A stretch of 64,000 nucleotides of DNA from Desulfosudis oleivorans. Lineage in GTDB: Bacteria > Desulfobacterota > Desulfobacteria > Desulfobacterales > SURF-7. This document shows, piece after piece, positions 1,470 to 61,685 of this stretch. The position numbers and the translations under genes were made by a program. Every line of letters starts with the position of its first letter. Position 1 is the stretch's first letter. The notes under the pieces are model-generated. The model was not told the origin of the DNA. It saw only the letters and a list, made by a program, of their open reading frames with translations, and did no database searches. The stretch lies in contig DYJD01000006.1 in the NCBI GenBank assembly GCA_020723325.1, positions 143,465 to 207,464 of the forward strand, given 5' to 3'.

Positions 1470-1617
1470 GGGTTGTCCGTAGCGAAGAATCAAATGTTAA
1501 TTTTGTTTAATTACTGGCCGGCGTTCAGTGCTGTCCTGTGCAATATAAACCCCTTTGGCATGGGGATCAACTTGAAACTATATGCAATTCTGGGTAGTCG
1601 CATTTGGATTCTCCGAA

Positions 1618-2283: not shown

Positions 2284-2371
2284 CCCACCTCCGGCACATG
2301 TTCCCGCTTCTGCATTGCATGGAATCCCAATCCTCGGATTGACATCCTGCTTTGCCGGCAATAGTTGTTTC

Positions 2372-5300: not shown

Positions 5301-6091
5301 ATGTGATAGGCTTTGGGCGAGCCGCGCTCGTATTCTTTAAAACTGCCTGATAATTTCAGATCGGTAAATAAATATTTTTGAATAAAATATCCGGCCACGG
5401 CTTCCAATTCCAAAGTCGCATCGGCCTTTTCCCGATCCACGGCTTGAAAGGCGTCCTGGACGCTCGGCAAACTGAGGATATGAATACGGGGGTGATGCTC
5501 CTTAAAATACCCTTCAAAGGCCCAGCCCTTGGGCAATGCCAAGATTTTCCCTTCCAATTGGTCGACATGGTTGATCTCAGGGGAATCCTTGCGAATGATG
5601 AATCTGTTCTTACCACTATAGATGGGTTTGGTGAACAAGCCGTAAGCTTCACGCGCCTCGGTTTTGTAAATGGGATGGATGACATCTATCTTCCGATCTT
5701 GAAATAATTTCAGTAATTCATCCCAGGTATATCCATTAATATATTCCACCTTGATACCCATGCGTTGTGCTGCCAGATTGATCAGGTCAACGGAAAATCC
5801 TTGGGCTTGACCGTTTACGGCAAAATCAAAGGGCGGGTAATCCGTTTCATTGGAAACGCGGATGATGGGATGAGCTTGTAGGAAATTCCTTTGCTCCGGC
5901 GTTATCGGCAAGGCTGAATCCGGCGTGAAGTCCTTTTCCCCTGCCCACAGGGAGATGGGGACCCAGCAAAGGAATAAAAAGATCATCCGCCATCTGGTAG
6001 TATATAATGCCGGCATTTGCTCAACCGCCTTGCAAAGGATTTCTCTTAGAACACGTGTTGCGAGCCCAATTGAATAACGACGGCAAAGCAA
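2372..6091 (-). CDS. Hybrid sensor histidine kinase (BvgS/EvgS-like): 2 periplasmic solute-binding domains, TM, HisKA, HATPase, 2 REC, Hpt
   Basis: 1239-aa ORF. It has two SBP_bac_3-like blocks, a TM segment ([20 protein letters not shown]), an H-box ([16 protein letters not shown]) and a G2 box (GGTGLGLAI). Two receivers follow ([21 protein letters not shown]; [21 protein letters not shown]), then Hpt ([13 protein letters not shown]). An alternative start at 6016 (MPALYTTRW) is possible. Confidence 0.9.
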
Positions 6092-6455
6092 GTCATCAGA
6101 AAAAAGGAACGTGATTTCAGATTATTGGATTTTATCCAAAATAATTTAGGGCGTCAATCACTATCTTCCCGGTCTTGATATAGCCTTGACACCTCCATAG
6201 TCATGGCCTACCATTTCGCCATGATTAATATCAATGTCCAAAACCCCTCACCCATAAGCGCCGCTGAGATTGCATGCGCGACAGAGCGAGGACGAATCGA
6301 GCTCGATCATCTTTGGAAGATTGTGAATGCCATCTGGTAGATGCAGACTTTCGACAAACTGATGAGGAAAATACATGGATGACCTTCAACGTGAAAAAAG
6401 TCTGGGCTTTGATTTTGAATATCTGAAGGAAAGCAACAAGCCCTTTTAATTAAGC

Positions 6456-8219
6456 TCAAATGGTCTGGGGCGACCGTTTCTCATGGACCACAGCGAGTTT
6501 CCCCTTGAGATAGAGCTCATGGTAATACCGCCGCCGCGGCTTGCCGCTGGAGGTCTTTTCGAGACTCCGCGGCTCCACGAACACCACGGATCGCAACGAC
6601 AGGCCATGCCCGGCTGAAACGGCCCCCTGGATGTTTTTTACAGCCGCGGCCCAGAACTCATCCATGGACTCCGCTCCCGTTCCCCCGGAATTGGCCTGGA
6701 CAGGAAGCTTGCGGTCATCCACTTCCGCAATAATGACCAGTTCTTCGACACCGTCGATCCGTTCAGAAATGGCTGCGCAAGCCCCTGGTCGAACCGGAGC
6801 GCCGGACTCCTGGACAGTGAGCTCGATGTCGCCCGGGTAGTGGTTTCGTCCGGCGATGATAATCAGGTCTTTCAATCGACCGGTTATATAAACCTCTCCA
6901 TCCGCAACAAAGCCCAAGTCGCCGGTGCGCAGAAAGGGCCCCTCGTTCGTGTCGGCCAAGTGCCCCTTAAATGTGGCCGCGGATTCCTCCGGCAGGCCCC
7001 AGTATTCGCCGGGCACACTGGGGCCTTGCACCCACAGCTCGCCGACTTGATTGGAATTGCATGGCGTGAGCGTCATCGGGTCCACGGCGATTATCCGGTG
7101 GCCGTATCCTGGTTTTCCGCAGCTTACAACACTACGTTCGGCGGGCTCATTTTCAGCCAGTATGCGGACACTGTGAATCTCCAAATCCGCTGCGCTCAGC
7201 CGAAGTACCTTGGGCGGCTCGGACAGTGACTTCATCCCGGCCACAAACAGCACGGACTCCGCCATGCCGTAACAGGGCATAAAGGTTTGCGGCCGAAATC
7301 CGTATGGTTCGAACTTTTTGATGAATTTTTCCATCGTCTGCGGAAGGACGGGCTCCCCGCCATTTCCCGCTACCAGCCAATGACTCAAATCAAGGCCTTT
7401 GCATTCTTCGGATTTGATCCGCCGCGCCGAATACTCGTAACCGAAGTTCGGACAGGCGGTGTTGGCGATTTTATAGTGACTGATCGCGCGCAGCCACCGC
7501 ACCGGCTTTATCAGAAAATCCATGGGTGACATCAGGGTGGACTCAAAGCCGTAATACACCGGACCCAGAATGTGCCCCACCAGGCATAAATCGTGGTAAT
7601 GGGGCGCCCACACAATCGCCGGTTGTGTTGATTTAATGCGCAGCATCTGGCCCATCACGCGGAGATTCGACACAATATTGGCGTGTTTGATGGCGACCCC
7701 TTTGGGGTGACCGGTGGAGCCGGATGTGAATTGCAAGTAAGCCACCGTGTCCATCTCAGCCGGCGGGCCGGACCAGTCGCTCCCGATACGGTCGGTCACG
7801 GCTCTCAAACAAACGGGCAGTTGGGAGGCTATGGCCGCGACCATTGCTGCCAGATCCGAACTAGTCAGAACCGTCGAAGCCCCGCAGGCCCCGGCGGTTT
7901 TCAGGATTTTACCTAAAGGGTTCTTGCTGTTGGGATTGGGCAGCGGGACAGGAACAGCCCGCGCTCCCGCAAGCAGGCAGCCGTAAAAGGCCTTCACAAG
8001 GTCCAGCCCGGGCGGGAAGGCCAGCATGACACTCGCGCCTGCGAGACCTTGTTCCGTCAAGTCTTCGGCCACTCCGACACTCTGGCGATAGAGTTCGGAA
8101 AAAGTCCATTCTGTAATGGGCCCGTCCACTTCACCGTTGCCCAGGAAACGAAAGGCCAGGTCATCTGCATTTCTCGTTGCCCGTTCCTTCAGAAAATCGG
8201 TAATCGTCAAGTTAATCAT
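6456..8219 (-). CDS. Fatty acyl-AMP ligase (FAAL) / AMP-dependent synthetase
   Basis: 587 aa. Motifs: AYLQFTSGSTGHPKGV (A3), WAPHYHDLCLVGHILGP, PNFGYEY, GDLGF, SSGKPRR. The N-terminal DFLKERATRNADDLAFRFL is typical of FadD32-like FAALs. Confidence 0.85.
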   Translation of the reverse strand: MINLTITDFLKERATRNADDLAFRFLGNGEVDGPITEWTFSELYRQSVGVAEDLTEQGLAGASVMLAFPPGLDLVKAFYGCLLAGARAVPVPLPNPNSKNPLGKILKTAGACGASTVLTSSDLAAMVAAIASQLPVCLRAVTDRIGSDWSGPPAEMDTVAYLQFTSGSTGHPKGVAIKHANIVSNLRVMGQMLRIKSTQPAIVWAPHYHDLCLVGHILGPVYYGFESTLMSPMDFLIKPVRWLRAISHYKIANTACPNFGYEYSARRIKSEECKGLDLSHWLVAGNGGEPVLPQTMEKFIKKFEPYGFRPQTFMPCYGMAESVLFVAGMKSLSEPPKVLRLSAADLEIHSVRILAENEPAERSVVSCGKPGYGHRIIAVDPMTLTPCNSNQVGELWVQGPSVPGEYWGLPEESAATFKGHLADTNEGPFLRTGDLGFVADGEVYITGRLKDLIIIAGRNHYPGDIELTVQESGAPVRPGACAAISERIDGVEELVIIAEVDDRKLPVQANSGGTGAESMDEFWAAAVKNIQGAVSAGHGLSLRSVVFVEPRSLEKTSSGKPRRRYYHELYLKGKLAVVHEKRSPQTI

Positions 8220-8526
8220 GAAAACTCCTTGGTATTATCCATCCAACAGCGCTTTCAACACATCTGCTTCCGATCAAAAGGTTCTTATCATGGAAATCCA
8301 TAGCGTATCCCGAACTGATTCTTGATGAAATAATTTCTGAGTTTGGTCAAGGTTTTTTTTTCGGTTACCTGGGAAATTGATCCGGGTTTGAATTTCCTTC
8401 TCGAGTTCATAAGGATGGTCGTGCCAAAGTAAATTATTCCATGTCTCGATAAGTTTAACTCAATTATGAAATATATATTTTGGCAAACAATATATGTGCA
8501 GATTTCGAGCTAAATAACTTTAAAAA

Positions 8527-8639
8527 TTCAAGAGCCTGATTGTCGAGAAAGGCGAGACCCTGATCAACTGCCTGGCCTATATATCGACCTCAATCCGGTA
8601 CGGGCCGGGCTGGTGTCAAAGCCCGTGGAACACCGATAG
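8527..8639 (+). pseudogene. Remnant of an IS200/RAYT-type (Y1) transposase C-terminus
   Basis: Translation FKSLIVEKGETLINCLAYI, then a 1-nt frame shift, then YIDLNPVRAGLVSKPVEHR*. This matches the conserved ..FKS.lVe....ll.l.rYI.LNPVRAGLV.. motif of REP-associated tyrosine transposase-like proteins. No N-terminal catalytic part is present. Confidence 0.5.
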
Positions 8640-8918
8640 AATTCCATATTATATTTATGCATCGGTCAATGATGTGTTCCACGATAACCATACCGGATTT
8701 TTTACTGCATCCGTTATAGCAGCCCCCGTTCTTTTGCCTGATGCTGGCTTTTGAATCCCGCAAATATTGGTCATACTTGCCGCCGATTTTTTTCCTTTGA
8801 AATCGTTGATGTCCTTCCAATCAAAGGGATTTTTTCAAATGAAAAATCATATCGCAGGTTCCGGAGATCACCACATCGCTGAAATACATTTTGGATTATC
8901 AATTTAAAAATATGGATT

Positions 8919-10235
8919 TTATTGGCTTACTGTGCGCCCGAATTCCGCCCCCTGTTTGAGAAGCGATTCCAAATCCATAGTCAGCAAGGAACGATCTTTT
9001 ACCAGCATTTTGCCGGCCACGAAAACATGGCGGACATCCGCTCCCCGCACGGAATAGACCAGGTGGGAGATTGGGTTGTACATGGGGGTGAGATGGGGCT
9101 TTTGGGTGTCGATGATGATCAGGTCAGCCTGCTTCCCGATTTCCAGGGTACCGATTTCCTGTTCCAATCCCAGGGCTCTGGCGCCGCTGCTGGTGGTCAT
9201 GTCCAGCACTGTCCCGGCATCCAGGCGGGTGGGGTCCAGCAGATAGACCTTGTGCAGCTTGGCAGCGGTATCCATCTCGCTGAACAGATCCAGATCATTG
9301 TTGCTGGCGCAGCCGTCCGTGCCGAGCCCCACTGGAATCCGGGCGGCAAGCATGGCCGCCACCGGTGCGATACCGGCCGCGAGTTTCATATTGCTTTCCG
9401 GATTGTGGGCCACTGCCGCGCCACGGGCGGCGATAAGTTCTATATCACTTTCTTCCAGCCAGACCGCATGAACCAGCAGGGTCTTCGCATCCAGCAACCC
9501 CAGACGGTCCAGATATTGAATCGGCGTGAGCCCGTGTTCAGCCTGAATTTGCTCCTTCTCGGCTTTGGTTTCCGCCACGTGAATTTGAAACAAGAGCCCC
9601 CTTTCGCTTGCCGCGGCTTTGGCTTTTTTCAGGGTGGCGGCGGAACAAGTATAGGGCGAATGGCAGAAAATGGAAGGAGTGATGAGGGCGGATCGGCCGC
9701 GCCATTTGTCACAAAAATCACCCGCTGTCTGAACGTTCTTTCCGGGGTCCGGGACGCCGGGCGCCGGAAAATCGATGACACCGTGGCCCAATACAGCGCG
9801 GATGCCGCTTTCCAAGACCGCTTGCGCCACCGTATCCTCATGAAAATAACCGTCGCAGCAGGTGGTAGTGCCGGACAAAAGCATTTCGGCAATGGACAAA
9901 CGGGTGCCCAGGCCCACGGTTTCCGGATTGATATGTGAGGCTTCGGCCGGAAAGATATGCTCATTAAGCCAGGCCATGAGGGGCAAATCATCGGCCAGAC
10001 CGCGAAAAAGGGACATGGGCAAGTGGGTATGGGTGTTGATGAGACCGGGCATGATGATGCCGCCCCGGGCATCGATGGTTTCGATTGCGGTCCACTCCGC
10101 CATTTCCAGGCCGGAACCTACTGCGGCGATACGCGTACCGGTGATGGCCACGGCGCCGTCCGGTATCCAGGTTGCGGACAAGGCTTTGGGAACAACGATA
10201 CCGTTTTTAATCAGGATGTGTGCTTGGCGGTTCAT
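8919..10235 (-). CDS. mtaD: 5-methylthioadenosine/S-adenosylhomocysteine deaminase-type amidohydrolase
   Basis: The ORF 8919..10343 is trimmed to MNRQAHILIKNGIVV. It carries the amidohydrolase metal motif GLINTHTHLPMSLFRG, then HVAET, and GTDGCASNNDLDLF near the C-terminus. Confidence 0.8.
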   Translation of the reverse strand: MNRQAHILIKNGIVVPKALSATWIPDGAVAITGTRIAAVGSGLEMAEWTAIETIDARGGIIMPGLINTHTHLPMSLFRGLADDLPLMAWLNEHIFPAEASHINPETVGLGTRLSIAEMLLSGTTTCCDGYFHEDTVAQAVLESGIRAVLGHGVIDFPAPGVPDPGKNVQTAGDFCDKWRGRSALITPSIFCHSPYTCSAATLKKAKAAASERGLLFQIHVAETKAEKEQIQAEHGLTPIQYLDRLGLLDAKTLLVHAVWLEESDIELIAARGAAVAHNPESNMKLAAGIAPVAAMLAARIPVGLGTDGCASNNDLDLFSEMDTAAKLHKVYLLDPTRLDAGTVLDMTTSSGARALGLEQEIGTLEIGKQADLIIIDTQKPHLTPMYNPISHLVYSVRGADVRHVFVAGKMLVKDRSLLTMDLESLLKQGAEFGRTVSQ

Positions 10236-11103
10236 CCATTTGCTCCAGGATTTGCCCCAGCAGGGCGGAAAGGGGCGCAGCCGCGGTCCGGGCCACCTGG
10301 ATGACGGCCTCCACGGTGGTCCGTTCCGGCCTGTCCGAATCATTCAGGTTAGTGATGATGGAAAGGCCCAGGATGCGCATGCCGGCATGTGCTGCGGCAA
10401 TGGCCTCCATAACGGTTGAAAACCCCACAGCATCGGCGCCGATCGAGCGCAGATAGCGGGTCTCCGCCGGGGTTTCCAAGGAAGGACCCAGCAACCCGGC
10501 ATAGCTGCCTTGTTGGAGTCTGAGATTCAGCTTTTTTGCCAGTCTGGCGGCCAGGGCGCGTAACTGGGGGTCATATACACTCGTCATATCCGGAAAGCGC
10601 GGTCCCCATTCGTCTTCGTTGGGTCCCCTCAACGGATTGCAGCCGGTAAGATTGATATGGTCCTTGATGGCCATGATATCGCCGGCCTGAAAATCCAGGT
10701 TCAAACCGCCGGCGGCATTTAGCAGAATCACGTTTTTCACGCCCAGGGCCTGCAGGATACGGATAGGCAATGTGACCTGCCGGGCATCATACCCTTCATA
10801 CAAGTGAAATCTTCCTTGCAGGACAAGGATGGACTTGCGGCCCAGGGTGCCGATCAAGAGCTTACCTGTATGGCCGATCACTGTGGCTGCTGGGAAATGA
10901 GGGATATGGGCATAATCCAAGGCCGTCTTCACCTCCATACCGGCCACGGCCTCCCCCAATCCGGTGCCGGTGAGAATCCCCGCAAGCGGCGTGGCTTGGA
11001 TCTGTTTGCGGATAAAATCCGCTGCTTCGGCTACTGTTTGCTTATCGATTTTGTTTCCTCCCCAGGCAAAGATAGTGATGCTGTAAATATCGGCTGCGAT
11101 CAT
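10207..11103 (-). CDS. Purine nucleoside phosphorylase (PunA/trimeric PNP family)
   Basis: Motifs GILTGTGLGE, QGRFHLYEGY, LLNAAGGLN, VGFSTVMEA. The start is uncertain. The ORF track begins at TTG 11199 and the first ATG is 11103. A strong GGAGG sits just upstream of an ATC at 11049, which would give the family-typical N-terminus xDKQTVAEAADFIRKQ. The gene overlaps the mtaD start by 29 nt. Confidence 0.8.
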   Translation of the reverse strand: MIAADIYSITIFAWGGNKIDKQTVAEAADFIRKQIQATPLAGILTGTGLGEAVAGMEVKTALDYAHIPHFPAATVIGHTGKLLIGTLGRKSILVLQGRFHLYEGYDARQVTLPIRILQALGVKNVILLNAAGGLNLDFQAGDIMAIKDHINLTGCNPLRGPNEDEWGPRFPDMTSVYDPQLRALAARLAKKLNLRLQQGSYAGLLGPSLETPAETRYLRSIGADAVGFSTVMEAIAAAHAGMRILGLSIITNLNDSDRPERTTVEAVIQVARTAAAPLSALLGQILEQMDEPPSTHPD

Positions 11104-11528
11104 TCTTGTAGCCGAATCGCGGCTGGAAGCCGCTCCCACAACGGAGAATGAGCGAATAAGATCAAATTCTTCATAATTCAGGAGGAACAAATCCGTCAAG
11201 GGGCAATCCAGGGGGGATCCATGGGAATCCCATGTAAACTTGGTACGGAAGCCGGGGTCGGTCAGCCCCGGCTTCCTTGGCCCTGGTTAGTGCGCTTCAT
11301 ATGGTAAGGAAACCCACATCCGCGTTTTTTTAATCCTTTTCTGTATCACCTGAATACACTCAAAATAGCGACCTATCTTTGCCTTGGTATCTTGATATAT
11401 GCGATTGCCCAGTTGACACAACTCCGCCCCCCTGATACAAACCGTTCAAAAACATAAAAGCGTTGTGCGTTTTGCCGGCGCTATAGTTGTGTTTTTCGTG
11501 GCTGAAACAAAATTGAATAGGTGATCCC

Positions 11529-11711
11529 ATGTCCTCCATGGATGAACAAATCCTGCGTACGGCCAAAGAAGTTGTGGTGAAGTTCATCGAGGTGGGCCGC
11601 ATTTCCCCGGCAGCCTTTGACGAATCCTTCCGGGCCATCTACCGCACGGTGGAAGAGGCTGTCCGCGGCCCCGGCAGCGAGCAGGGGGAAGACAAAGGGG
11701 AAACCAAATAA
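11529..11711 (+). CDS. Small hypothetical protein (60 aa)
   Basis: ATG ORF with coding-like composition, convergent with polA (stop 4 nt before the polA stop). A TTGACA-N17-TACAAA box lies upstream. No recognisable domain. Confidence 0.4.
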   Translation: MSSMDEQILRTAKEVVVKFIEVGRISPAAFDESFRAIYRTVEEAVRGPGSEQGEDKGETK

Positions 11712-11715
11712 TGGT

Positions 11716-14394
11716 CTAATGGGCTTCGGCCCAATTCCCACCCTCGGCAATGTTGACCTTCAGGGGAACCCTGAGGTTCCAGACCCCTTCCATCAAGCTT
11801 GTCACCATTTTGGTGACCGGCGCAAGCTCCGCCGGCGGGACTTCAAAAACCAGTTCATCATGCACGGACAGCAGCATGGCTGCCTGAAATTTCTCTTTTT
11901 CAAAGGCCGCGGCAATATGGATCATGGCCAGCTTGATCAGGTCGGCGGCGGTGCCCTGAATGGGTGTGTTGATGGCGATCCGTTCCGCGAACTGCCGCAG
12001 ATTCTGGTTGCTGCTGTTGATGTCCGGCAACAGGCGGATGCGGCCCAGGAGGGTGTTGGTGCGGCCGGTTTTGCGGGTTACGGCGATGGTCTCGTCAATG
12101 AAGCGTTTGACGCCCTGGTAACGGGCAAAATAGTGATCAATATAAGTTTTGGCCATTTTCTGGCTGATGCCCAGGGTCCTGGAAAGGCCGAAGGGGCTCA
12201 TGCCGTAAATGATGCCGAAATTGATGGCCTTGGCCTGGCGCCGGATTTCCGGGGTGATGAAAGCCGGCAGCATTTCAAACACCTCGCTGGCCGTGCGGGT
12301 ATGAATATCCTCCTCTTGTTCAAAGGCGCTGATCAGGATGGGATCTTCCGAATAGTGGGCCAGAATGCGCAGTTCGATCTGGGAGTAATCGGCTGAAACC
12401 AGCTTCCAGCCCGGCCTGGGGATGAAGGCCCGGCGGATCTCGCGGCCGTCGTCGTCCCGCACCGGGATATTCTGGAGATTGGGGTCTGAGCTGCTCAACC
12501 GGCCGGTGGCGGTGATGGTCTGGTTGTAAGAGGTATGGATGCGCCGGGTTTGCGGATGAATCAGGTCCAGCAGGGCATCGGCATAGGTGGATTTCAGTTT
12601 GGCCAGGGTGCGGTGCTTCAGCACCAGGGCCGGCAGTTCATGCTTGTCGGCCAGGAGGGTCAGCACTTCCACATCGGTTGAATAACCGGTCTTTTTCTTG
12701 GTCTTTTTTTGAACCGGTAGCTTAAGCTTTTCAAACAGGATGTCCCCCAGTTGCTGGGAGGATTTGATATTGAAGGTTTCGCCGGCCGCGGCGTAAATGT
12801 CCGCCTCGAGGCGGTCCAGACGGATTTCAAAGGATTTGGACAAGTCCCGCAATTTGTCCTGGTCCACACAGATCCCCTGCATTTCCATCTTCATCAGAAT
12901 TTCCACCAGGGGCATTTCCACCTTTTCAAACAATTCAGTCAAGCCGGCAGAGGCAAGCAGCGGGCCTAGGACCTGATAGGCCTTGAGGGTCATGTCAGCG
13001 TCTTCGCTGGAGTAGATTATGGCTTTTTCCAAAGGCACGGCGGCAAAGCTGACGGCGGTCTTGCCTTTACCGGCCACTTCCTCGTAGGAGATCATCTTAT
13101 GCCCGAGAAAATCCAGGGCGATCTGATCCAGGCTGTGGGCCCGCTTGGAAGGATCAATGAGATAAGAAGCCAGCATGGTGTCAAAGACCACGCCGTTCAA
13201 CGGCAGGCCGTGGCGTTTCAAGACGATCCAATCATATTTGATATTTTGGCCGATCTTTTGGAGCCGGGAATCGGCCAGGAGCGGCCCCAGGCAGGTAGCC
13301 ACTTCTGTGAGGGGTAGTTGTCCGGCGGCATCGTCGCCGGTATGGCCCACGGGGATATAGAAAGCCTCATCCGGCCGGTATGCCACTGAAATACCCACCA
13401 GGCGGGCCTGCATGGGGTCGATGGAAGTGGTTTCCGTATCGATGGCAAAGCGGCCGGCGGCGGAGAGATTTTCAACCAGGGTCTGCAGCGAGGCAAGACT
13501 TTTCACCCCGTAGTACTTTTTCTCCGCCATGTCTTTGGGTGCCGCGACCTGTTGCTGCAATTGCCGAAATTCCAACTCCTGATAAAGGGCGGCCAGTTTT
13601 TCGTTAAGGGCGCTCTTGACCTTGAATTCCTCGGGCTCAAAGGCAACCGGTGCATGTTTGTTGATGGTCACCAGCTCTTGGCTGAGCAATGCCTGGCTTT
13701 TGAAATTCAAGAGCTTTTCACGCTGTTTCAACTGGGGCACTTGATCGAGCTGCTCATATAAAAGCGCCAGGCTGCCGAAGCGCTGGATCAAAGCCGCCGC
13801 GGTTTTGGGGCCGATGCCGGGCACGCCCGGAATGTTGTCCGAGGTATCGCCGGACAAGGCCATGACATCGATCATCTGGGCCGGGGCGACGCCGTGGAGG
13901 CTGCGGATGCCGGCTGTGTCCACTTGGCTGTCCTTCATGGGGTCCCAGATGACGGTGTTTTCCGTGACCAATTGCATGAAATCCTTGTCGCCGGTCACCA
14001 TGACCACGGCAAATCCGCTTTCCTCGGCCAGGCGGGCAATGGTGCCGATCAGATCGTCGGCCTCGAAGCCGGTAAGTTCCAATTGTTTCAGGTTGAAGCC
14101 TTCCACAACCGCCTTGATATAGGGGAGCTGAACCGCAAGATCATCCGGCATGGGCGGGCGATTGGCCTTGTAATCGGAATAAACAGCATGGCGGAAGGTG
14201 GGGCCTTTGGCGTCAAAAAAGACCGCGGCAAATTCCGGCGCTTTGTCCGCCATCAATTTCAGGATCATCTTGGTAAAACCGAAGACCGCATTGGTGGGCA
14301 GGCCTTTTGAATTGGACAGGTTGCGGATGGCATGGTAGGCTCGATAAATATAGGCGCTGCCATCGATGAGATAGATGGTTTGGCGATGGGTCAT
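11716..14394 (-). CDS. polA: DNA polymerase I
   Basis: 892 aa. It has a 5'-3' exonuclease N-terminus (IYLIDGSAYIYRAYHA), a 3'-5' exonuclease domain (FAIDTETTS) and Pol A motifs (DYSQIELRILAH, RRQAKAINFGIIYG, QVHDELVFE-like SVHDELVFEV). Confidence 0.97.
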   Translation of the reverse strand: MTHRQTIYLIDGSAYIYRAYHAIRNLSNSKGLPTNAVFGFTKMILKLMADKAPEFAAVFFDAKGPTFRHAVYSDYKANRPPMPDDLAVQLPYIKAVVEGFNLKQLELTGFEADDLIGTIARLAEESGFAVVMVTGDKDFMQLVTENTVIWDPMKDSQVDTAGIRSLHGVAPAQMIDVMALSGDTSDNIPGVPGIGPKTAAALIQRFGSLALLYEQLDQVPQLKQREKLLNFKSQALLSQELVTINKHAPVAFEPEEFKVKSALNEKLAALYQELEFRQLQQQVAAPKDMAEKKYYGVKSLASLQTLVENLSAAGRFAIDTETTSIDPMQARLVGISVAYRPDEAFYIPVGHTGDDAAGQLPLTEVATCLGPLLADSRLQKIGQNIKYDWIVLKRHGLPLNGVVFDTMLASYLIDPSKRAHSLDQIALDFLGHKMISYEEVAGKGKTAVSFAAVPLEKAIIYSSEDADMTLKAYQVLGPLLASAGLTELFEKVEMPLVEILMKMEMQGICVDQDKLRDLSKSFEIRLDRLEADIYAAAGETFNIKSSQQLGDILFEKLKLPVQKKTKKKTGYSTDVEVLTLLADKHELPALVLKHRTLAKLKSTYADALLDLIHPQTRRIHTSYNQTITATGRLSSSDPNLQNIPVRDDDGREIRRAFIPRPGWKLVSADYSQIELRILAHYSEDPILISAFEQEEDIHTRTASEVFEMLPAFITPEIRRQAKAINFGIIYGMSPFGLSRTLGISQKMAKTYIDHYFARYQGVKRFIDETIAVTRKTGRTNTLLGRIRLLPDINSSNQNLRQFAERIAINTPIQGTAADLIKLAMIHIAAAFEKEKFQAAMLLSVHDELVFEVPPAELAPVTKMVTSLMEGVWNLRVPLKVNIAEGGNWAEAH

Positions 14395-45133: not shown

Positions 45134-45210
45134 GCCAACGTAGCTCAGCTAGGCAGAGCAACTGATTTGTAATCAGTAGGTCGTGGGTTCGATTCCCTCC
45201 GTTGGCTCCA
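45134..45210 (+). tRNA. tRNA-Thr (anticodon TGT)
   Basis: Manual cloverleaf: acceptor gccaacg/cgttggc, anticodon arm actga-tttgtaa-tcagt, T-loop gggttcgattccc, encoded CCA. Confidence 0.9.
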
Positions 45211-45228
45211 GGCATTAGGGTTTTTTTA

Positions 45229-45314
45229 GGTGGGGTTCCCGAGTGGTCAAAGGGAACAGACTGTAAATCTGTCGGCCGAAGCCTTCGGAGGTTCAAATCC
45301 TCCCCCCACCACCA
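45229..45314 (+). tRNA. tRNA-Tyr (anticodon GTA), long variable arm
   Basis: Acceptor ggtgggg/ccccacc, anticodon arm acaga-ctgtaaa-tctgt, long variable arm cggccgaagccttcg, T arm ggagg-ttcaaat-cctcc, CCA. Confidence 0.9.
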
Positions 45315-45461
45315 TTCTCATCGCAAGTCGAATGCAGGAGATCCCGGCTGTTGAATCGGATCGATGAAACTGCATGACTGCCTGCATGGGAGCCATCAAG
45401 ATTTGATAGCTGCCCAAGTCCTATTGCCCAATGGCGAATGGTGACCTGCGATGACCTTTGA

Positions 45462-45537
<76 letters not shown>

Positions 45538-45596
45538 GATCGGTTATTTGTTCGCCCCGGCAAATTGTGTCGGCCGGGGGTGTGGTCATGGATAAC

Positions 45597-45673
45597 GCCC
45601 ACGTAGCTCAGACGGTAGAGCGCTTCCTTGGTAAGGAAGAGGTTCATCGGTTCGATTCCGATCGTGGGCTCCA
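45597..45673 (+). tRNA. tRNA-Thr (anticodon GGT)
   Basis: Acceptor gcccacg/cgtgggc, anticodon arm cttcc-ttggtaa-ggaag, T-loop cggttcgattccg, CCA. Confidence 0.9.
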
Positions 45674-45773: not shown

Positions 45774-46970
45774 GGAGGACGGGAAGATGGCGAAAGCGAA
45801 ATTTGAGCGAACCAAGCCGCATGTCAATGTAGGTACGATCGGTCATATTGATCATGGCAAGACGACGCTGACGGCAGCGATCACGAAGCATGCATCCTTG
45901 CGCGGGAACGCGCAGTATGTGCCTTTTGATCAGATTGACAAGGCTCCGGAGGAGAAGGAGCGCGGGATCACCATTGCCACCGCACATGTGGAGTATCAGA
46001 CGGATAAACGTCATTATGCGCATGTGGATTGTCCTGGTCATGCGGACTATATCAAGAACATGATCACGGGAGCAGCTCAGATGGACGGCGCCATTTTGGT
46101 GGTGGGTGCGGATGACGGCCCCATGCCCCAGACCCGCGAGCATATTCTGCTGGCCCGCCAGGTGGGTGTACCGCGGATAGTGGTGTTTTTGAACAAATGC
46201 GACATGGTGGATGATGAGGAACTGATCGAGCTGGTGGAGCTGGAATTGCGCGAGCTGCTGGACAAGTATGAGTTTCCCGGGGACGAGACCCCCATCATCC
46301 GGGGCAGTGCTTTGAAGGCCTTGGAGAGCGACGATGTGAACAGCGAGGAAGCCAAGCCGATTTTTGCGTTGCTGGATGCGGTGGACTCGTACATACCGGA
46401 GCCGGCCCGTGATATTGAGAAGCCGTTTTTGATGCCCATTGAGGATGTGTTCAGCATTTCCGGCCGCGGCACGGTGGTGACCGGTCGCGTGGAGCGCGGT
46501 ATTATCAAGGTGGGCGAGGAAATCGAGATCGTGGGTCTGCGTCCCACGGCCAAGACGGTGTGCACTGGTGTTGAGATGTTCCGCAAGCTGCTGGATGAAG
46601 GCCGGGCTGGAGACAACGTGGGTTTGTTGCTGCGGGGTACCAAGCGGGATGAAGTTGAGCGCGGTCAGGTGGTGGCGAAACCCGGTTCGATCACGCCGCA
46701 CATGAAGTTCAAGGCGGAAGTGTATGTGTTGAGCAAGGAAGAGGGTGGGCGTCATACGCCGTTTTTCAGTGGGTACCGGCCGCAGTTTTTCTTCCGGACA
46801 ACAGATGTGACGGGGATATTGACGCTGCCCGAGGGAGTGGAGATGGTCATGCCCGGCGACAATGTAACGATCACGGGCGAGCTGATTTCCCCCATCGCCA
46901 TGGAGAAAGAGCTGCGCTTTGCAGTGCGTGAAGGCGGTCGGACGGTGGGTGCCGGTGTCGTAAGTGATAT
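45774..46970 (+). repeat. 1197-bp direct repeat (tuf copy 1), identical to 60479-61675
   Basis: Identity starts at the SD (ggaggacgggaag ATG) and ends 10 nt before the stop. The translations of the overlapping ORFs on both strands are identical between the two loci in the ORF track, so nucleotide identity is inferred. Confidence 0.9.
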
Positions 46971-46980
46971 TATAGAGTAG
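45787..46980 (+). CDS. tuf: Elongation factor Tu (copy 1, tufB-like position after the tRNA cluster)
   Basis: [33 protein letters not shown]..., 397 aa, canonical G1-G5 motifs. Confidence 0.98.
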
Positions 46981-47198: not shown

Positions 47199-47275
47199 AG
47201 GCCAGTAGCATAATTGGGTAATGCAGCGGACTCCAAATCCGAAGATTGCGGGTTCAAGTCCTGCCTGGCCTGCCA
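47199..47275 (+). tRNA. tRNA-Trp (anticodon CCA)
   Basis: Acceptor aggccag/ctggcct, anticodon loop ctccaaa, T arm gcggg-ttcaagt-cctgc, CCA. It sits in the classical rpmG-tRNA-Trp-secE position. Confidence 0.88.
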
Positions 47276-53800: not shown

Positions 53801-54919
53801 TCCATCAAAGTGGGAAAAAAGCAGTTGATCCTCAAAGGCAAGGAAATCAGCAAGGAAATACTGGATGAGCTGCCCCTGGATCAGATGGAAGGCATCGTTA
53901 TGGAAGATGCCGAACTGACTGAAAAAGTGCACGAATTGTTAGACCGTGTCCGGGAACAAAAGGAAATTTGCCGGGAGCGCTTTGAGGAAAATGTCAGCCG
54001 CTATGAAAAAGGCGATGATCTGCCGCCGGGCGTCATCAAGCTCATCAAAATTTATGTGGCCATGAAACGAATCCTTTCCGTGGGTGATAAAATGGCCGGG
54101 CGGCACGGCAATAAAGGCGTGGTCTCCCGGATCCTGCCCCAGGAAGATCTGCCCTATTTCAAAAACGGCCTTACCGTGGACATGATTTTGAATCCCCTGG
54201 GGGTTCCGTCGCGTATGAATGTGGGGCAGATTTTAGAGATTCATTTGGGCCGGGCCGCCAGAACCCTGGGTGCCCAGATCGAACGTATGATAGAAGAGCG
54301 GAAATGTCAGGAGCTGCGCGGGAAGTTGAAGCGGATTTTTGCTTCCGAGCCGGAAAGCCAAGTCCTGGACAAGCTACCTGATGAGGAGCTGCTGGAATTG
54401 GCCGAGGATTATCGGGAAGGCGTGCATATGGCCACGCCGGTGTTCGACGGCGCCAAGGAAGAGGAGATCAAGACCCTGCTCAAAGAAGCGAATGTGGATA
54501 CCAGCGGTCAGGCCATATTGTTTGACGGCCGCACCGGTGAGCCTTTCCATGAAAAAGTAACGGTGGGGACCATGTATATGTTGAAACTCCACCACCTGGT
54601 GGATGACAAGATCCATGCCCGCTCCATCGGACCCTATTCCCTGGTAACCCAGCAGCCCCTGGGCGGCAAGGCCCAGTTCGGCGGGCAACGTCTGGGTGAA
54701 ATGGAAGTCTGGGCCATGGAAGCCTATGGCGCGGCCCATGCCTTGCAGGAATTTCTCACCGTTAAATCGGATGATATGGCCGGTAGAACGCGCATGTATG
54801 AGAAGATTGTGAAAGGGCAAAATGTTCTGGAACCGGGTCTGCCAGAATCCTTCCGGGTGTTGATCAAGGAACTGCAGAGCCTGGGGCTGGATATCAACCT
54901 TATTGAAAGAAAACAGTAA
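50822..54919 (+). CDS. rpoB: DNA-directed RNA polymerase subunit beta
   Basis: 1365 aa. [21 protein letters not shown]..., [57 protein letters not shown]. Confidence 0.99.
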
Positions 54920-54929
54920 GGAGAAACGA

Positions 54930-57900
54930 TTGGAAACCATTTACGATTTTTTCGCCAAACCGACGGATCCGCGGCTTTATACCGGAGTGAAAGTCAGCCT
55001 GGCCTCGCCAGAACAGATTCGCCAATGGTCCCACGGGGAAATTAAAAAACCGGAGACCATCAATTATCGCACCTTTAAACCGGAGCGGGATGGCCTGTTC
55101 TGCGCCAAAATTTTCGGCCCCACCAAGGATTATGAATGTAATTGCGGCAAGTACAAACGCATGAAGCACCGGGGGGTTATATGCGAAAAATGCGGTGTGG
55201 AAGTCATTCAATCCAAAGTGCGGCGTGAACGCCTGGCGCATATTGATCTTGCCACCCCCATCGCCCATATTTGGTTTTTGAAAAGCCTGCCGAGCAAAAT
55301 CGGCAATCTCTTGGACCTGACCCTCAAGAACATGGAGAAGGTTCTTTATTTTGACAGCTATATTGTCATTGACCCCAAGGACACCGGCCTGATGAGGGGC
55401 CAGTTGTTGTCCGACGAGAAATACCATGAGGCCCTTGAACTCTACGGCGCCAAATTCGAGGCCGGGATCGGCGCGGAAGCCGTCAAGCGCATGCTGGAGG
55501 AATTGGATCTCAATAAGGTATATCGGGAGCTGCGGGAGGAGATCATTTCCACCGGCTCCGACGCCAAGCGCAAGAAGCTTGCCAAGCGTCTGAAAATCGT
55601 GGATGCGTTTCGCAATTCCGGCATCGATCCCAAATGGATGATCATGGACGTGATTCCGGTGCTGCCGCCGGATCTGCGCCCCCTGGTGCCCCTGGAGGGC
55701 GGCCGTTTTGCCACCTCAGATCTGAACGATCTGTACCGGCGGGTCATCAACCGCAACAACCGGTTGAAACGTTTGATGGAGCTGAAGGCGCCGGATATCA
55801 TCGTGCGCAACGAGAAGCGCATGTTGCAGGAATCCGTGGATGTGCTTTTTGACAATGGCCGCCATGGTCGGGTGGTAACCGGCACGAACAAGCGGCCGCT
55901 GAAATCTCTGTCCGATACATTAAAAGGCAAGCAAGGCCGCTTCCGCCAGAATCTTTTGGGAAAACGGGTGGACTATTCCGGACGTACGGTTATCACCATC
56001 GGTCCCAATTTGCGGCTGCATCAATGCGGCCTGCCGAAACAGATGGCCCTGGAGCTGTTCAAGCCCTTTGTTTATCATCGTCTTGAGCATAAGGGTTTTG
56101 TTTCCACTGTGAAAAGCGCCAAAAAAATGGTGGAACGCCTGTCACCGGAAGTGTGGGACACCCTGGATGAAGTGGTCAAGGAATATCCGGTGATGCTGAA
56201 CCGCGCGCCCACCTTGCACCGTTTGGGAATCCAGGCCTTTGAACCGGTGTTGATCGAGGGCAAGGCCATTCAATTGCATCCTCTGGTTTGTACGGCCTTT
56301 AATGCGGACTTTGACGGCGACCAAATGGCGGTTCACATTCCCCTTTCCGTGGAATCCCAGATTGAAGCCCGGGTCCTGATGCTGGCCAGCAACAACATTT
56401 TGTCGCCGGCCAACGGCAGCCCCATCATTGTTCCCACCCAGGACATCGTGCTCGGTCTGTATTATTTGACCAAGGCCGCTGCCGGAGCCAAGGGCGAGGG
56501 CATGCTGTTTTCCAATTCGGATGAAGTGCAGGCCGCCTATGATTCCAACGTGGTGGATCTGCATGCGGCCATCACCGTGCGCATGGGGCAAACCCGGGTG
56601 GAAACCACGGTGGGCCGTATGCTGCTGTGGGAAATCATTCCCAAGGACATCATCATGTCCTTCCGCCACATCAAGGTCACGGCCAAGAAGACGGCCAAGG
56701 CCGTGTTGGAGGAAATCGAAAAGGGCGTGGCTTTCACGGATCTGGTCACCACCTATTCCAAGAGCCCGGATAAAGAGAACGGGGGCCTGATCGGCCGATT
56801 CAACGAGGAAGAATTCGGAAATATTTTCCCGGTGGAAGATGAGAATGCCATTGCCGGCCTGTTTGCCCTTGAAAAAGGCGGGATCAGTGAAATCATCATC
56901 ATGGATGACGGCTATCACCTATTTCAGGTGCTGGATAAAAAACCGGCCATTCCCTTCCATGTCATCAACCATGTGATGGACAAGAAGACCTTGCGGGATC
57001 TCGTTGATTATGCCTACCGGAATACCGGTCCCAAAACCACCGTAATCCTGTCCGATAAGCTCAAAGACATCGGTTATCGGTATTCCACCGAGGGCGGCCT
57101 TTCCATCTGCATAGACGACATGATCATCCCCAAGACCAAATGGAGCATCATTCACAGTGCTGAGAAAAAGGTCGAGGAAATCGGCACTCAGTACACCGAA
57201 GGTTTGATCACCCAGGGTGAAAAATACAACAAAGTGGTGGATATCTGGGCCAAAGCCACGGATGAAATTGCCGATGCCATGATGGAATCCATGAAGCGGA
57301 CGGCCAAGGCAGCGGATGGGGAAGCCTTGCCCAAAACCAAGGAGCATCTGAATTCCATTTTCATGATGGCAGATTCAGGCGCCCGGGGCAGTAAAGACCA
57401 GATGCGTCAGCTAGCCGGCATGCGCGGCTTGATGGCCAAACCTTCCGGTGAGATCATTGAAACCCCGATCACGGCCAATTTCCGGGAGGGATTGACCGTG
57501 CTGCAATACTTTATCTCCACCCATGGCGCCCGCAAGGGTCTGGCAGACACGGCCTTGAAAACAGCCAACTCGGGTTATTTGACCCGTAGGCTGGCGGACG
57601 TGGCCCAGGATTGCACGGTCATGGAGATCGATTGCGGCACCATGATGGGCATCGAGGTGGAGGCCCTCATGGAAGGCGGTGAGATTATTCAGCGCCTGGA
57701 TGAACGTATCCTGGGCCGCACGGCCCTGGAAGATGTTTTGGACCCGTTTACCGACGAGGTATTGTTGAAAGCCGGCGCTGAGTTTGATGAAGACGCCGTG
57801 CGCCTGATCGATGAATGCGGTCTGGCCAAGGTCAAGATCCGTTCTGTTCTGACCTGCAAGGCCCGTTTCGGCGTCTGCGCCAAATGCTACGGCCGGGATC

Positions 57901-59351
57901 TGTCCCATGGCGGTCCGGTTGAAATCGGTCAGGCCGTGGGCATTTTGGCGGCCCAATCCATCGGTGAGCCCGGCACCCAGTTGACCATGCGTACCTTCCA
58001 TATCGGCGGTACGGCCAGCCGGCGGGTGGAGCAGGCGGATATCCGCGCCCGGGTGGAAGGCACCATCAAATTCGGTGGATTGAATGTGGTGCGCAATGCG
58101 GAAAATCAATATATCGTCATGAATCGCCGGGGTGGAGAGTTCACCATTGTGGGCGAAACCGGTCGCGAGCGGGAGCGCTGTCCGGTTATTTATGGGGCCC
58201 ATATCATGGTGGAGGACGGCCAGGCGGTGAAAGTGGGTGATTTGATCGCCACCTGGGATCCCTTTACCACCCCCATCATCACGGAAGTGAACGGTATTGC
58301 CAAGTTCGGCGATATTGAAGCCGGCAAGACCATGCAGGAAAAGGTCGATCCGGTCACCGGTAAATCCAGCCGCACCATCATTGAGTCAAAGGCCGCGGAT
58401 GTGCGCCCGCGAATTTCCATCAAGGATGAGAGCGGTAAAACCGTTGTCCTGAAAGGCAAGAGCGGGCTGGCCCGTTATATGCTGCCGGTGGACGCCATTT
58501 TGCTGGTGGACGAAAATGACGAGGTCAAAGCCGGCGATGTGCTTGCCAAATTGCCCCGGGCCACCACCAAAACCAAGGATATCACCGGCGGTTTGCCGCG
58601 GGTGGCGGAATTGTTTGAGGTGCGCAAACCCAAGGAAGTGGCCGTGTTGAGCGAGATCGACGGCTATGTATCCATTGCCAAGGCCACCACGAAAAAGGGT
58701 AAGCAAAAAGTCACCATCACACCGGTGGATGTGGGCGAGAAAAAAGAATATCTCATTCCGCGCGGGAAACACATCAATGTTTATGAAGGCGATTATGTTC
58801 GGGCCGGCGAGCAGGTGGTGGGCGGCGCAGCCAATCCCCAGGATATTTTGAACATCAAGGGTGAAGTGGCTTTGGCGCGCTACCTGGTGGATGAGGTTCA
58901 GGAGGTCTATCGCCTGCAGGGTGTCAGGATCAATGACAAGCATATTGAAGTCATTGTGCGCCAGATGATGCGGCAGGTGAAGGTGAAAGATGTGGGTGAC
59001 ACCGATTTCATCGCCGAAGAGCAAGTGGAAAGAAATCGGTTTGAGTCGGTCAACCAGGCGGTCCTGGATAAAGGCGGCAGGCCGGCGGTGGGTGAACCCC
59101 TGATCCTCGGCATTACCAAGGCCTCCTTGTCCACGGACAGTTTTATATCTGCCGCTTCGTTCCAGGAAACCACCAAGGTGCTGACCGATGCAGCCATTCA
59201 GGGCAAGGTGGATTTGCTCATGGGGCTCAAGGAAAACGTCATCATGGGCCGCCTGATTCCGGCCGGCACCGGGCTGATGGCCATGCGGGAATTGGATATC
59301 GAAACTTTTACGGATCGCCGCATCGGTGAAGCCGAGCAGGGACTGGAATAA
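54930..59351 (+). CDS. rpoC: DNA-directed RNA polymerase subunit beta-prime, carrying an internal parvulin-like insertion (see findings)
   Basis: The TTG start at 54930 follows AAGGAGA. (M)[13 protein letters not shown], zinc motif [23 protein letters not shown], catalytic [12 protein letters not shown], trigger-loop region with an SI3-like insert. 1473 aa. Confidence 0.98.
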
Positions 59352-59514: not shown

Positions 59515-59886
59515 ATGCCGACGATAAATCAGTTAGTTCGCAAGGGTAGAAAGCGGGTCAAAAAAAAGACCAATACGCCGGCGTTGAAAGGGGCGCCTCA
59601 GAAACGAGGAGTTTGCACCCGGGTATATACGTCAACGCCCAAAAAACCGAATTCAGCGCTTCGAAAAGTGGCGAGAGTGAGACTGACTACCGGTATAGAA
59701 GTTACCGCTTACATCCCGGGGATCGGGCACAATCTTCAGGAGCATTCCGTGGTGCTCGTTCGCGGGGGACGTGTGAAAGACCTTCCCGGTGTGAGATATC
59801 ATATTGTCCGCGGTACTCTTGATACGCTCGGGGTTGAGGATCGCAAGCAAGGCCGATCCAAATACGGTGCGAAAAAGCCGAAATAA
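59515..59886 (+). CDS. rpsL: 30S ribosomal protein S12
   Basis: [56 protein letters not shown]. Confidence 0.99.
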
Positions 59887-59933: not shown

Positions 59934-60413
<480 letters not shown>

Positions 60414-60478: not shown

Positions 60479-61675
60479 GGAGGACGGGAAGATGGCGAAA
60501 GCGAAATTTGAGCGAACCAAGCCGCATGTCAATGTAGGTACGATCGGTCATATTGATCATGGCAAGACGACGCTGACGGCAGCGATCACGAAGCATGCAT
60601 CCTTGCGCGGGAACGCGCAGTATGTGCCTTTTGATCAGATTGACAAGGCTCCGGAGGAGAAGGAGCGCGGGATCACCATTGCCACCGCACATGTGGAGTA
60701 TCAGACGGATAAACGTCATTATGCGCATGTGGATTGTCCTGGTCATGCGGACTATATCAAGAACATGATCACGGGAGCAGCTCAGATGGACGGCGCCATT
60801 TTGGTGGTGGGTGCGGATGACGGCCCCATGCCCCAGACCCGCGAGCATATTCTGCTGGCCCGCCAGGTGGGTGTACCGCGGATAGTGGTGTTTTTGAACA
60901 AATGCGACATGGTGGATGATGAGGAACTGATCGAGCTGGTGGAGCTGGAATTGCGCGAGCTGCTGGACAAGTATGAGTTTCCCGGGGACGAGACCCCCAT
61001 CATCCGGGGCAGTGCTTTGAAGGCCTTGGAGAGCGACGATGTGAACAGCGAGGAAGCCAAGCCGATTTTTGCGTTGCTGGATGCGGTGGACTCGTACATA
61101 CCGGAGCCGGCCCGTGATATTGAGAAGCCGTTTTTGATGCCCATTGAGGATGTGTTCAGCATTTCCGGCCGCGGCACGGTGGTGACCGGTCGCGTGGAGC
61201 GCGGTATTATCAAGGTGGGCGAGGAAATCGAGATCGTGGGTCTGCGTCCCACGGCCAAGACGGTGTGCACTGGTGTTGAGATGTTCCGCAAGCTGCTGGA
61301 TGAAGGCCGGGCTGGAGACAACGTGGGTTTGTTGCTGCGGGGTACCAAGCGGGATGAAGTTGAGCGCGGTCAGGTGGTGGCGAAACCCGGTTCGATCACG
61401 CCGCACATGAAGTTCAAGGCGGAAGTGTATGTGTTGAGCAAGGAAGAGGGTGGGCGTCATACGCCGTTTTTCAGTGGGTACCGGCCGCAGTTTTTCTTCC
61501 GGACAACAGATGTGACGGGGATATTGACGCTGCCCGAGGGAGTGGAGATGGTCATGCCCGGCGACAATGTAACGATCACGGGCGAGCTGATTTCCCCCAT
61601 CGCCATGGAGAAAGAGCTGCGCTTTGCAGTGCGTGAAGGCGGTCGGACGGTGGGTGCCGGTGTCGTAAGTGATAT
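60479..61675 (+). repeat. 1197-bp direct repeat (tuf copy 2), identical to 45774-46970
   Basis: Same evidence as for copy 1. The offset between the copies is 14705 bp. Confidence 0.9.
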
Positions 61676-61685
61676 CATAGAATAA
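60492..61685 (+). CDS. tuf: Elongation factor Tu (copy 2, str-operon position)
   Basis: Its 397-aa product is identical to copy 1. Only the last codons differ, and synonymously (att ata gag tag versus atc ata gaa taa). Confidence 0.98.

Follow-up and report, generated by a model that had tools for sequence, protein, structure and literature searches.

The β′ subunit of RNA polymerase (RNAP) encoded in the stretch of Desulfosudis oleivorans DNA analyzed here carries a parvulin-fold domain of 100 amino acids, inserted in frame between two conserved segments of the chain. The stretch, referred to below as the window, comprises 64,000 nucleotides (GenBank assembly GCA_020723325.1, contig DYJD01000006.1, positions 143,465 to 207,464 of the forward strand), and all coordinates are given within it. 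The insert lies within rpoC at 56649..56948 on the + strand, and its assignment draws on translation, Pfam Rotamase matches, an AlphaFold2 model, Foldseek comparison and homologues in other genomes. The presence of the domain is a lineage-restricted, order-wide trait of the Desulfobacterales. As to its role, residue conservation favors a vertically inherited parvulin insert that would act as a non-catalytic binding or chaperone-like module on RNAP, a reading to which we assign a probability of about 50%.

Several observations establish that the domain belongs to an otherwise ordinary β′ chain. An initial annotation, made from the letters of the window alone, had quoted a 100-residue block within rpoC, and translation of 56649..56948 in the rpoC frame yields exactly these residues, with no stop codons or frameshifts and with the reading frame intact across the gene. 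The mechanical open reading frame of rpoC (54903-59351, 1482 amino acids) opens with the TTG codon at 54903, ahead of the rpoB stop codon (54917-54919), so that the two genes would overlap. Another TTG, at 54930, lies just past that stop, has an AAGGAG Shine-Dalgarno sequence 6 nucleotides upstream and is for this reason the likely start, giving a gene at 54930..59351 on the + strand whose product of 1473 residues agrees with the length first reported. In the 1482 numbering the insert thus corresponds to β′ residues 583-682, and in the 1473 numbering to 574-673. The rpoC product scores 1757 bits against the NCBIfam rpoC model TIGR02386 and contains all of the Pfam Rpb1 domains 1-5. The catalytic NADFDGDQM loop, placed by motif position, is encoded at 56301..56327 (+ strand; residues 467-475 in the 1482 numbering), and the insert begins 108 residues beyond the end of this motif rather than the approximately 95 stated originally.

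The flanks of the insert define a clean junction. The N-terminal flank (56604..56648, + strand) is the end of the bacteria-specific domain β′-bD4 and matches E. coli β′ up to approximately residue 585, while in the C-terminal flank (56949..57020, + strand) the universal domain β′-uD3 resumes and is aligned with E. coli β′ from approximately residue 587; the boundaries of these domains are those of Table 2 in Alvarez-Carreno et al. 2024 (PMC11515920). In alignments with 54 distinct solved β′ sequences the match halts at LLWEIIPKD and picks up at aIPFHVIN, with both ends falling on one reference residue, E. coli 586. Because the flanking alignments stop and resume at one residue, the block is a pure addition of about 100 amino acids in which no β′ residues are replaced. 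The contiguity of these flanks, which the initial annotation had stated for E. coli, extends to all 54 solved sequences, none of which has the block. The block interrupts the Pfam domain RNA_pol_Rpb1_3 (pore 1), with the break at profile positions 82 and 98. Base composition does not set the block apart, its G+C content of 0.50-0.56 falling inside the rpoC range of 0.48-0.62, as had been noted.

The identity of the block as a parvulin is indicated by sequence families and by predicted structure. Compared alone with the Rotamase families PF00639, PF13616 and PF13145 at their curated Pfam cutoffs, a check that had been proposed at the outset, the block exceeds all three: 41.7 bits for Rotamase PF00639 (cutoff 21.7), 39.4 bits for Rotamase_3 (cutoff 22.5) and 35.1 bits for Rotamase_2 (cutoff 27). 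It also matches the NCBIfam PrsA, PpiC and SurA models locally, and its best sequence matches in the PDB are PrsA chains (E 5e-7) followed by PpiC (Par10). Judged from these sequence comparisons, the parvulin identity is far beyond chance. An AlphaFold2 model of the insert, built with homologues from the sequence searches, has a mean predicted local distance difference test score (pLDDT) of 93.7 and a predicted template modeling score (pTM) of 0.84, and its order of elements (β-α3-β-α-β2) is that of the four-stranded antiparallel sheet and helices of parvulins. The 50 best Foldseek matches in the PDB are all parvulins, namely PrsA, SurA P1 and P2, PpiD, Par14, Pin1 and Par10, with template modeling (TM) scores of 0.65-0.82 for the best of them, the highest value of 0.82 being normalized to single-domain targets; both 2pv1 (peptide-bound SurA P1) and 2kgj (PpiD) appear in this list, at a TM score of 0.74 normalized to the target. 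The original description of a PpiC-type parvulin domain in frame inside β′ is therefore sustained by three Rotamase models over cutoff together with a parvulin fold prediction.

The connection of the domain to the core was modeled in a longer segment, β′ 495-770 (276 residues), which gave a pLDDT of 92.3 and a pTM of 0.80. Since confidence does not dip at either junction, the insert is predicted to sit on short ordered connections to the core. Comparison of this context model with solved β′ chains gives a TM score of only approximately 0.46, as would be expected if the domain has no equivalent in any solved RNAP. An intein or other mobile element was considered and rejected, given the clean parvulin hidden Markov model and fold matches and the lack of any other Pfam family on the block alone; such an origin is also contradicted by the co-divergence of the insert with its host gene described below.

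The distribution of the insert was established with a degenerate DNA pattern spanning the junction between insert and β′ (H-x-F-x-[VI]-x6-I-P-[FY]-x2-[IV]-N-x12-D-Y), which cannot match a β′ lacking the insert. Scanned in GTDB species-representative genomes, it matched at least 120 of them, and all 120 matches listed are β′ sequences with a homologous block at the same site, with no false positives among them. The pattern demands the second conserved histidine (His-2) and F92 of the insert, so both residues are fixed in the genome-derived inserts. The carriers among the matches listed are labeled almost entirely as Desulfobacterales or its families, and include Desulfonema limicola, Desulfosudis oleivorans, Desulfosarcina, Desulfococcaceae, Desulfosalsimonadaceae, Desulforegulaceae and Ca. 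Desulfatibia, as well as the Olavius Delta-3 symbiont, the cultured Desulfobotulus alkaliphilus ASO4-4 and a Desulfosarcina strain. Their assemblies are independent, come from many studies and include genomes of isolates as well as closed long-read chromosomes. A homologous block is also carried by more than 20 fragments from metagenomes. Closest to the window among the matches listed is the metagenome-assembled genome JTS-AC21 (L059), whose insert is 69% identical and whose flanks are 92% identical. The insert is accordingly no peculiarity of one genome but an order-wide trait of at least 120 species.

Other searches returned less. A search of a word-indexed protein collection with the 100-residue block alone, the approach first suggested for mapping its distribution, found no match, and the distribution was recovered with the junction pattern instead. 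In the same collection the insert profile gave four matches and a wider segment gave only fragments shorter than 500 amino acids, with no full-length insert-bearing β′; names and counts in this collection say little about how the insert is distributed. A scan of the species genomes with a peptide pattern based on the window's own insert was also empty, because relatives are only approximately 40% identical in this region. An exhaustive HMMER search yielded 865 parvulin matches, none of RpoC length, since clustering at 50% hides full-length RpoC proteins. Ten of its best matches are short pieces of β′ in which a homologous block, sharing 35-53% identity with that of the window, occupies the same site, and on these grounds the idea that other RpoC proteins are devoid of the insert was rejected. 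Public pipelines already tag insert-bearing fragments with PF00639 plus PF04983.

A few carriers bear labels outside the order, including Nitrospinaceae, Gammaproteobacteria, Hyphomonadaceae and Pseudomonadota (L025, L009 and L087; also L006, L018, L052, L066 and L105). Their insert-bearing rpoC is of the Desulfobacterales type; for most of them the nearest insert comes from a Desulfobacterales-labeled genome at 81-97% identity, and the inserts of L025 and L009 are 89-97% identical to those of genomes so labeled. Because of this proximity, these carriers are likely to represent mis-binned contigs or legacy labels.

The evolutionary behavior of the insert was examined in 117 inserts from the genome matches listed, the sample to which the residue and length statistics below refer. 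Length is nearly constant, with 99-100 amino acids in 113 of 117. Mean pairwise amino acid identity is 40% in the insert versus 74% in the 200 flanking residues, and the median ratio of nonsynonymous to synonymous substitution rates (dN/dS) is 0.24 versus 0.06-0.07 in the flanks, falling to 0.2 or less for the insert in the closest pairs. The insert is under purifying selection that is several-fold looser than that acting on the core, and evolves approximately 3-4 times faster than the β′ core. Distances in the insert and in the flanks are correlated (Mantel r 0.61, a value reached in 0 of 999 permutations), and the nearest neighbor of an insert is among the top three flank neighbors in 86 of 104 cases. 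Because distances co-vary in this way and selection is purifying, the data fit a single old acquisition followed by vertical descent with the essential rpoC gene, under real but looser purifying selection and with occasional decay. The suggestion that the insertion is old and fixed and no chimera agrees with its presence at one site in at least 120 assemblies, its co-divergence with β′ and this selection. Recent horizontal acquisition was rejected, given a composition matching that of rpoC and the co-divergence with the flanks. The closest free relatives of the insert are chaperones of SurA_N plus Rotamase architecture, which suggests that the donor may have been of this type.

The sequences of Par10 and Pin1, checked exactly against the PDB, were aligned to the insert-family profile with hmmalign. 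Both conserved parvulin histidines are present in the window, as had been reported: His-1 is insert H7, equivalent to Par10 H8 and Pin1 H59 (56667..56669, + strand), and His-2 is insert H90, equivalent to Par10 H84 and Pin1 H157 (56916..56918, + strand). The initial annotation had sought the catalytic Asp or Cys in a GG(D/C)LG motif, where the window has Leu. Mapping with the verified Par10 and Pin1 sequences led us to reject GGxLG as the site of the catalytic residue: the Cys or Asp (Par10 C40, Pin1 C113, PrsA Asp) resides in an S-x-[C/D]-x-S motif, and its counterpart in the window is Ser39 (56763..56765, + strand). The proline-pocket segment (56790..56828, + strand) contains I48 (Pin1 L122), F56 (Pin1 M130, Par10 M57) and F60 (Pin1 F134).

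Across the 117 inserts the two halves of the site have fared unequally. The catalytic Cys/Asp column holds Ser in 49, Ala in 33, Gly in 16, His in 8, Asp in 3 and Cys in 3, besides four others, so that only 6 of 117 have a Cys or Asp there. His-1 is retained in 97 and replaced by Arg in 14, Gln in 5 and Tyr in 1 (lost in 20 of 117, 17%). The equivalents of Pin1 T152 and S154 are variable; the position of Pin1 S154 and Par10 F81 is Asp in the window and D, G or E across the family. In the pocket columns, by comparison, 102 inserts have I/L at the first position, 102 have F at the second and 108 have F at the third. Two further residues are specific to the family: D41 is conserved in 83% of the 117 inserts, and E55 is invariant in a 10-sequence alignment (A1) and present in at least 90% of a 101-sequence alignment (A2). 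A Pfam comparison of the rpoC product found no WW domain, and the basic phosphate loop of Pin1 (K63, R68 and R69, β1-α1) lacks a counterpart, the corresponding Pin1 segment remaining unaligned to the insert-family profile. We infer that the canonical catalytic network has probably decayed while the hydrophobic pocket was kept. No functional group is selected at the nucleophile/acid position and the pocket persists; this is the signature of non-catalytic parvulins such as SurA P1 and PpiD, and the family residue data favor the earlier proposal that the module may bind rather than isomerise. The parvulin fold is kept with degenerate catalytic residues, as in non-catalytic domains of the chaperone type.

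The wider-segment search provides a sample not selected on His-2, consisting of 35 junction-spanning metagenome β′ fragments. Twenty have no insert and contiguous flanks, 11 have a canonical block, three have a block without His-2 and one has a remnant; His-2 is thus kept in 11 of 14 full blocks. Two of the variants (P0160 and P0164) are full-length blocks that have lost both histidines, a third (P0161) combines the loss of His-2 with an internal deletion of 13 amino acids, and the remnant (P0162) is reduced to 30 amino acids comprising only the first strand and helix. These degenerate blocks fall below the Pfam rotamase cutoff. The occurrence of histidine-less, deleted and remnant versions at the same site suggests that the insert has decayed or been lost in some sub-lineages.

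The position of the insert on the enzyme is one at which β′ chains are known to break. By the domain table of PMC11515920 the site lies at the end of β′-bD4 and the resumption of uD3, and the same source describes the cyanobacterial N-terminal sub-subunit as ending with uD3 and the C-terminal one as starting at uD4 (Alvarez-Carreno et al. 2024). Jumbo-phage β′-like subunits are split where the cyanobacterial β′ splits (PMC7598289). Aligned with the window protein, the NCBIfam gamma-subunit model extends up to residue 567 and the rpoC2 (β″) models begin at 685-688, and solved cyanobacterial RpoC2 chains begin within approximately 3 residues of the end of the insert. The insert site, as located by these alignments, is thus a surface point of the pore-1 region that has proved permissive more than once, cyanobacterial and jumbo-phage chains being broken at the same position. 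The pore-1 region and the funnel line the secondary channel.

These observations can be assembled into a mechanism in which an ancestor of the sampled Desulfobacterales gained, in a single event, a parvulin domain of the PrsA/SurA/PpiD type at a surface junction of β′, and the domain was then inherited vertically within the essential rpoC gene. The domain would fold as a complete parvulin module on short ordered connections to the core, as modeled. With the catalytic residues apparently decayed and the proline/peptide pocket kept, it is most likely not an efficient prolyl isomerase; by analogy with SurA P1 and PpiD it would be a non-catalytic, chaperone-like protein- or peptide-binding module fixed on RNAP, and could dock a partner protein or help β′ to fold or assemble. 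The looser constraint, together with decay and deletion in some sub-lineages, suggests that such a role is accessory rather than essential. Several considerations weigh against this account. Function is deduced here from residue conservation only, and the conservation of His-2 and F92 in the 117 inserts was fixed by the search pattern. The C113S substitution in Pin1 reduces activity approximately 20-fold and does not abolish it, and since Ser at the catalytic position is compatible with residual activity in Pin1, the window domain with its His, Ser and His could by analogy keep weak peptidyl-prolyl isomerase activity. Conservation of the pocket could reflect the stability of the fold, as its residues also belong to the hydrophobic core, and an insert that misfolds would be costly in so essential an enzyme, which by itself could account for the purifying selection.

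Three other explanations have to be set against the binding-module interpretation. That the block is an assembly chimera or an annotation artefact of the window genome has in its favor only the prior that unusual fusions are often artefacts, and is effectively refuted by at least 120 independent assemblies and more than 20 metagenome fragments in which this block recurs at this site, and by an intact frame with a composition matching the rest of rpoC. An active prolyl isomerase tethered to RNAP, working on Xaa-Pro bonds of transcription factors, sigma, NusG/NusA or nascent chains much as Pin1/Ess1 does on the Pol II CTD, would be consistent with a window copy that combines both histidines, a Ser at the Cys/Asp position and an intact hydrophobic pocket in a confidently predicted, complete parvulin fold, with the 6 of 117 inserts that have Cys or Asp, and with clients of E. 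coli PpiC that include NusG, Rho and RpoA. We nevertheless regard this as unlikely: the catalytic position drifts freely among S, A, G and H with no functional group selected, His-1 gives way to R, Q or Y in 17%, the Par10 F81/Pin1 S154 position is D, G or E, and some lineages lack both histidines or most of the domain. The WW domain and the basic phosphate loop of Pin1 are moreover missing here.

A neutral or structural passenger, that is, an inert folded domain without a ligand that sits harmlessly in a permissive loop and persists while partial deletions are usually deleterious, is a more tenable proposition, although still a doubtful one. In cyanobacteria and jumbo phages even a broken chain is tolerated at this site, the insert has evolved some 3-4 times as fast as the core, decay has reached the catalytic residues, and relatives contain remnant (P0162) and internally deleted (P0161) versions. 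Against a passenger of this kind stand a dN/dS of 0.24, at or below 0.2 in close pairs and well below neutrality, a length held at 99-100 amino acids in 113 of 117, the family-specific conserved surface residues E55 and D41 and the retained pocket aromatics, and retention of the trait in at least 120 species.

A more ambitious and rather improbable extension is that a built-in chaperone/isomerase module engages a specific client during transcription, such as a stretch containing proline in NusG, Rho, a Gre/DksA-type factor or sigma, or the nascent polypeptide where transcription and translation are coupled. If true, such a module would hard-wire factor recruitment or protein folding into the polymerase, and bacteria would have a cis-acting parallel to the relationship between Pin1/Ess1 and Pol II. 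A parvulin insert shared by a whole order of sulfate reducers that is ecologically dominant falls, whatever its role, outside the surveyed set of folds and indicates that RNAP can recruit a chaperone/isomerase fold. The progression from canonical to histidine-less to remnant variants is a natural mutational series, cultured carriers exist and the domain is small. Its coincidence with the β′ split of cyanobacteria, chloroplasts and jumbo phages marks the insertion site as a general "soft spot" at which RNAP fusions could be engineered. For classification, the insert provides a clean molecular synapomorphy of the Desulfobacterales, and it can also serve to reveal mis-binned contigs.

The surroundings of the insert are conventional. 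The gene order in the window, tRNA-tuf-secE-nusG-rplKAJL-rpoB-rpoC-rpsL-rpsG-tuf, is that of the usual cluster. The first tuf copy is directly preceded by four tRNA genes (45134-45670), and a fifth (47199-47272) separates it from secE/nusG, tRNA-tuf-secE-nusG being the standard arrangement. The two tuf genes, encoding EF-Tu (45787-46980 and 60492-61685, 1194 nucleotides each), differ at just 3 positions, all in the last 10 nucleotides, and their proteins are identical; near-identical pairs are the pattern typical of ongoing gene conversion between tuf copies. In the str operon (rpsL 59515-59886, rpsG 59934-60413, tuf 60492-61685) the rpsG-tuf spacer is 78 nucleotides and fusA (EF-G) is absent between rpsG and tuf in the window, the common str arrangement being rpsL-rpsG-fusA-tuf. 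One of the other carriers (L001; ENA ERZ25039527 contig_48950, 1-13188) has the same tuf-secE-nusG-rplKAJL-rpoB-rpoC-rpsL order. Its rplA, rpoB and rpoC are each broken up into many short gene calls, as is typical of frameshifts in an unpolished long-read assembly, and an 85-residue "protein" (P0084) is a piece of its insert-bearing rpoC. Within the window's rpoC, an SI3-like trigger-loop insert of 197 amino acids (57987..58577, + strand), delimited by the spacing between the motifs GEPGTQLT and DITGGLPRV, is also present, as the initial annotation had recognized. Weak hybrid-motif Pfam matches (Biotin_lipoyl_2, Peptidase_M23 and RPOC_hybrid) fall within or just after it, and β′ here therefore bears two different types of insert.

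Comparison with known parvulins places the domain in familiar structural company and in an unfamiliar host. PrsA, SurA (P1 and P2) and PpiD likewise contain a parvulin as an inserted or tethered module in a larger protein, and the parvulin domains of SurA P1 and PpiD are catalytically inactive binding modules. These proteins are, however, secreted or periplasmic folding factors, whereas the host of the insert is the catalytic subunit of a cytoplasmic RNAP; the insert also differs from them in an extra stretch of approximately 6 residues before the last helix and in its family-specific E55 and D41. E. coli PpiC (Par10) has the same size and topology and aligns end to end, with both histidines and the M57/F61 pocket equivalents in register. 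Par10 has the catalytic C40 and F81 where the insert has Ser and Asp, and is a free cytoplasmic protein rather than a part of RNAP. Pin1/Ess1 and the C-terminal domain (CTD) of Pol II offer another instance of a parvulin-fold protein functionally linked to a multisubunit RNAP, and the initial annotation had drawn this analogy. The resemblance is confined to the level of the fold: Pin1/Ess1 acts on the Rpb1 CTD as an enzyme of its own, and the insert, itself a part of the polymerase, has neither its WW domain nor its basic phosphate loop nor its Cys113; bacterial β′ is also without CTD repeats.

The rpoC1-rpoC2 split of cyanobacteria and chloroplasts and that of jumbo phages occur at the same β′ position as the insert; in cyanobacteria and jumbo phages the chain is broken there, whereas in the Desulfobacterales a folded domain is spliced in. 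The initial annotation knew of no description of a parvulin domain in RpoC, and the searchable full-text literature, whose coverage does not extend to Lane & Darst 2010, likewise contains no description of a parvulin insert in RNAP. The architecture is visible in databases through automated Pfam tags, though a published description was not found. According to the survey PMC11515920, most β′ lineage-specific inserts are HABAS and rarer ones combine HABAS, BEAN and sLC; its text and supplements, as searched, make no mention of parvulin or of Desulfobacterales. Compared with that text and its tables, the insert site could be matched to none of the seven listed, the nearest being "the middle of bD4". 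The catalogued inserts (SI3/β′i6, Thermus β′i2, HABAS/SBHM, BEAN/BBM2 and sLC) are, like the present one, in-frame, lineage-restricted and vertically inherited surface accretions, and the insert conforms to this class in being in frame, absent from the 54 solved β′ sequences and inherited with its host gene. It departs from the class in fold, which is that of a parvulin rather than HABAS/SBHM, BEAN/BBM2 or sLC. The best reading is that the Desulfobacterales domain represents a fold class new among β′ inserts, at a site that is apparently new as well.

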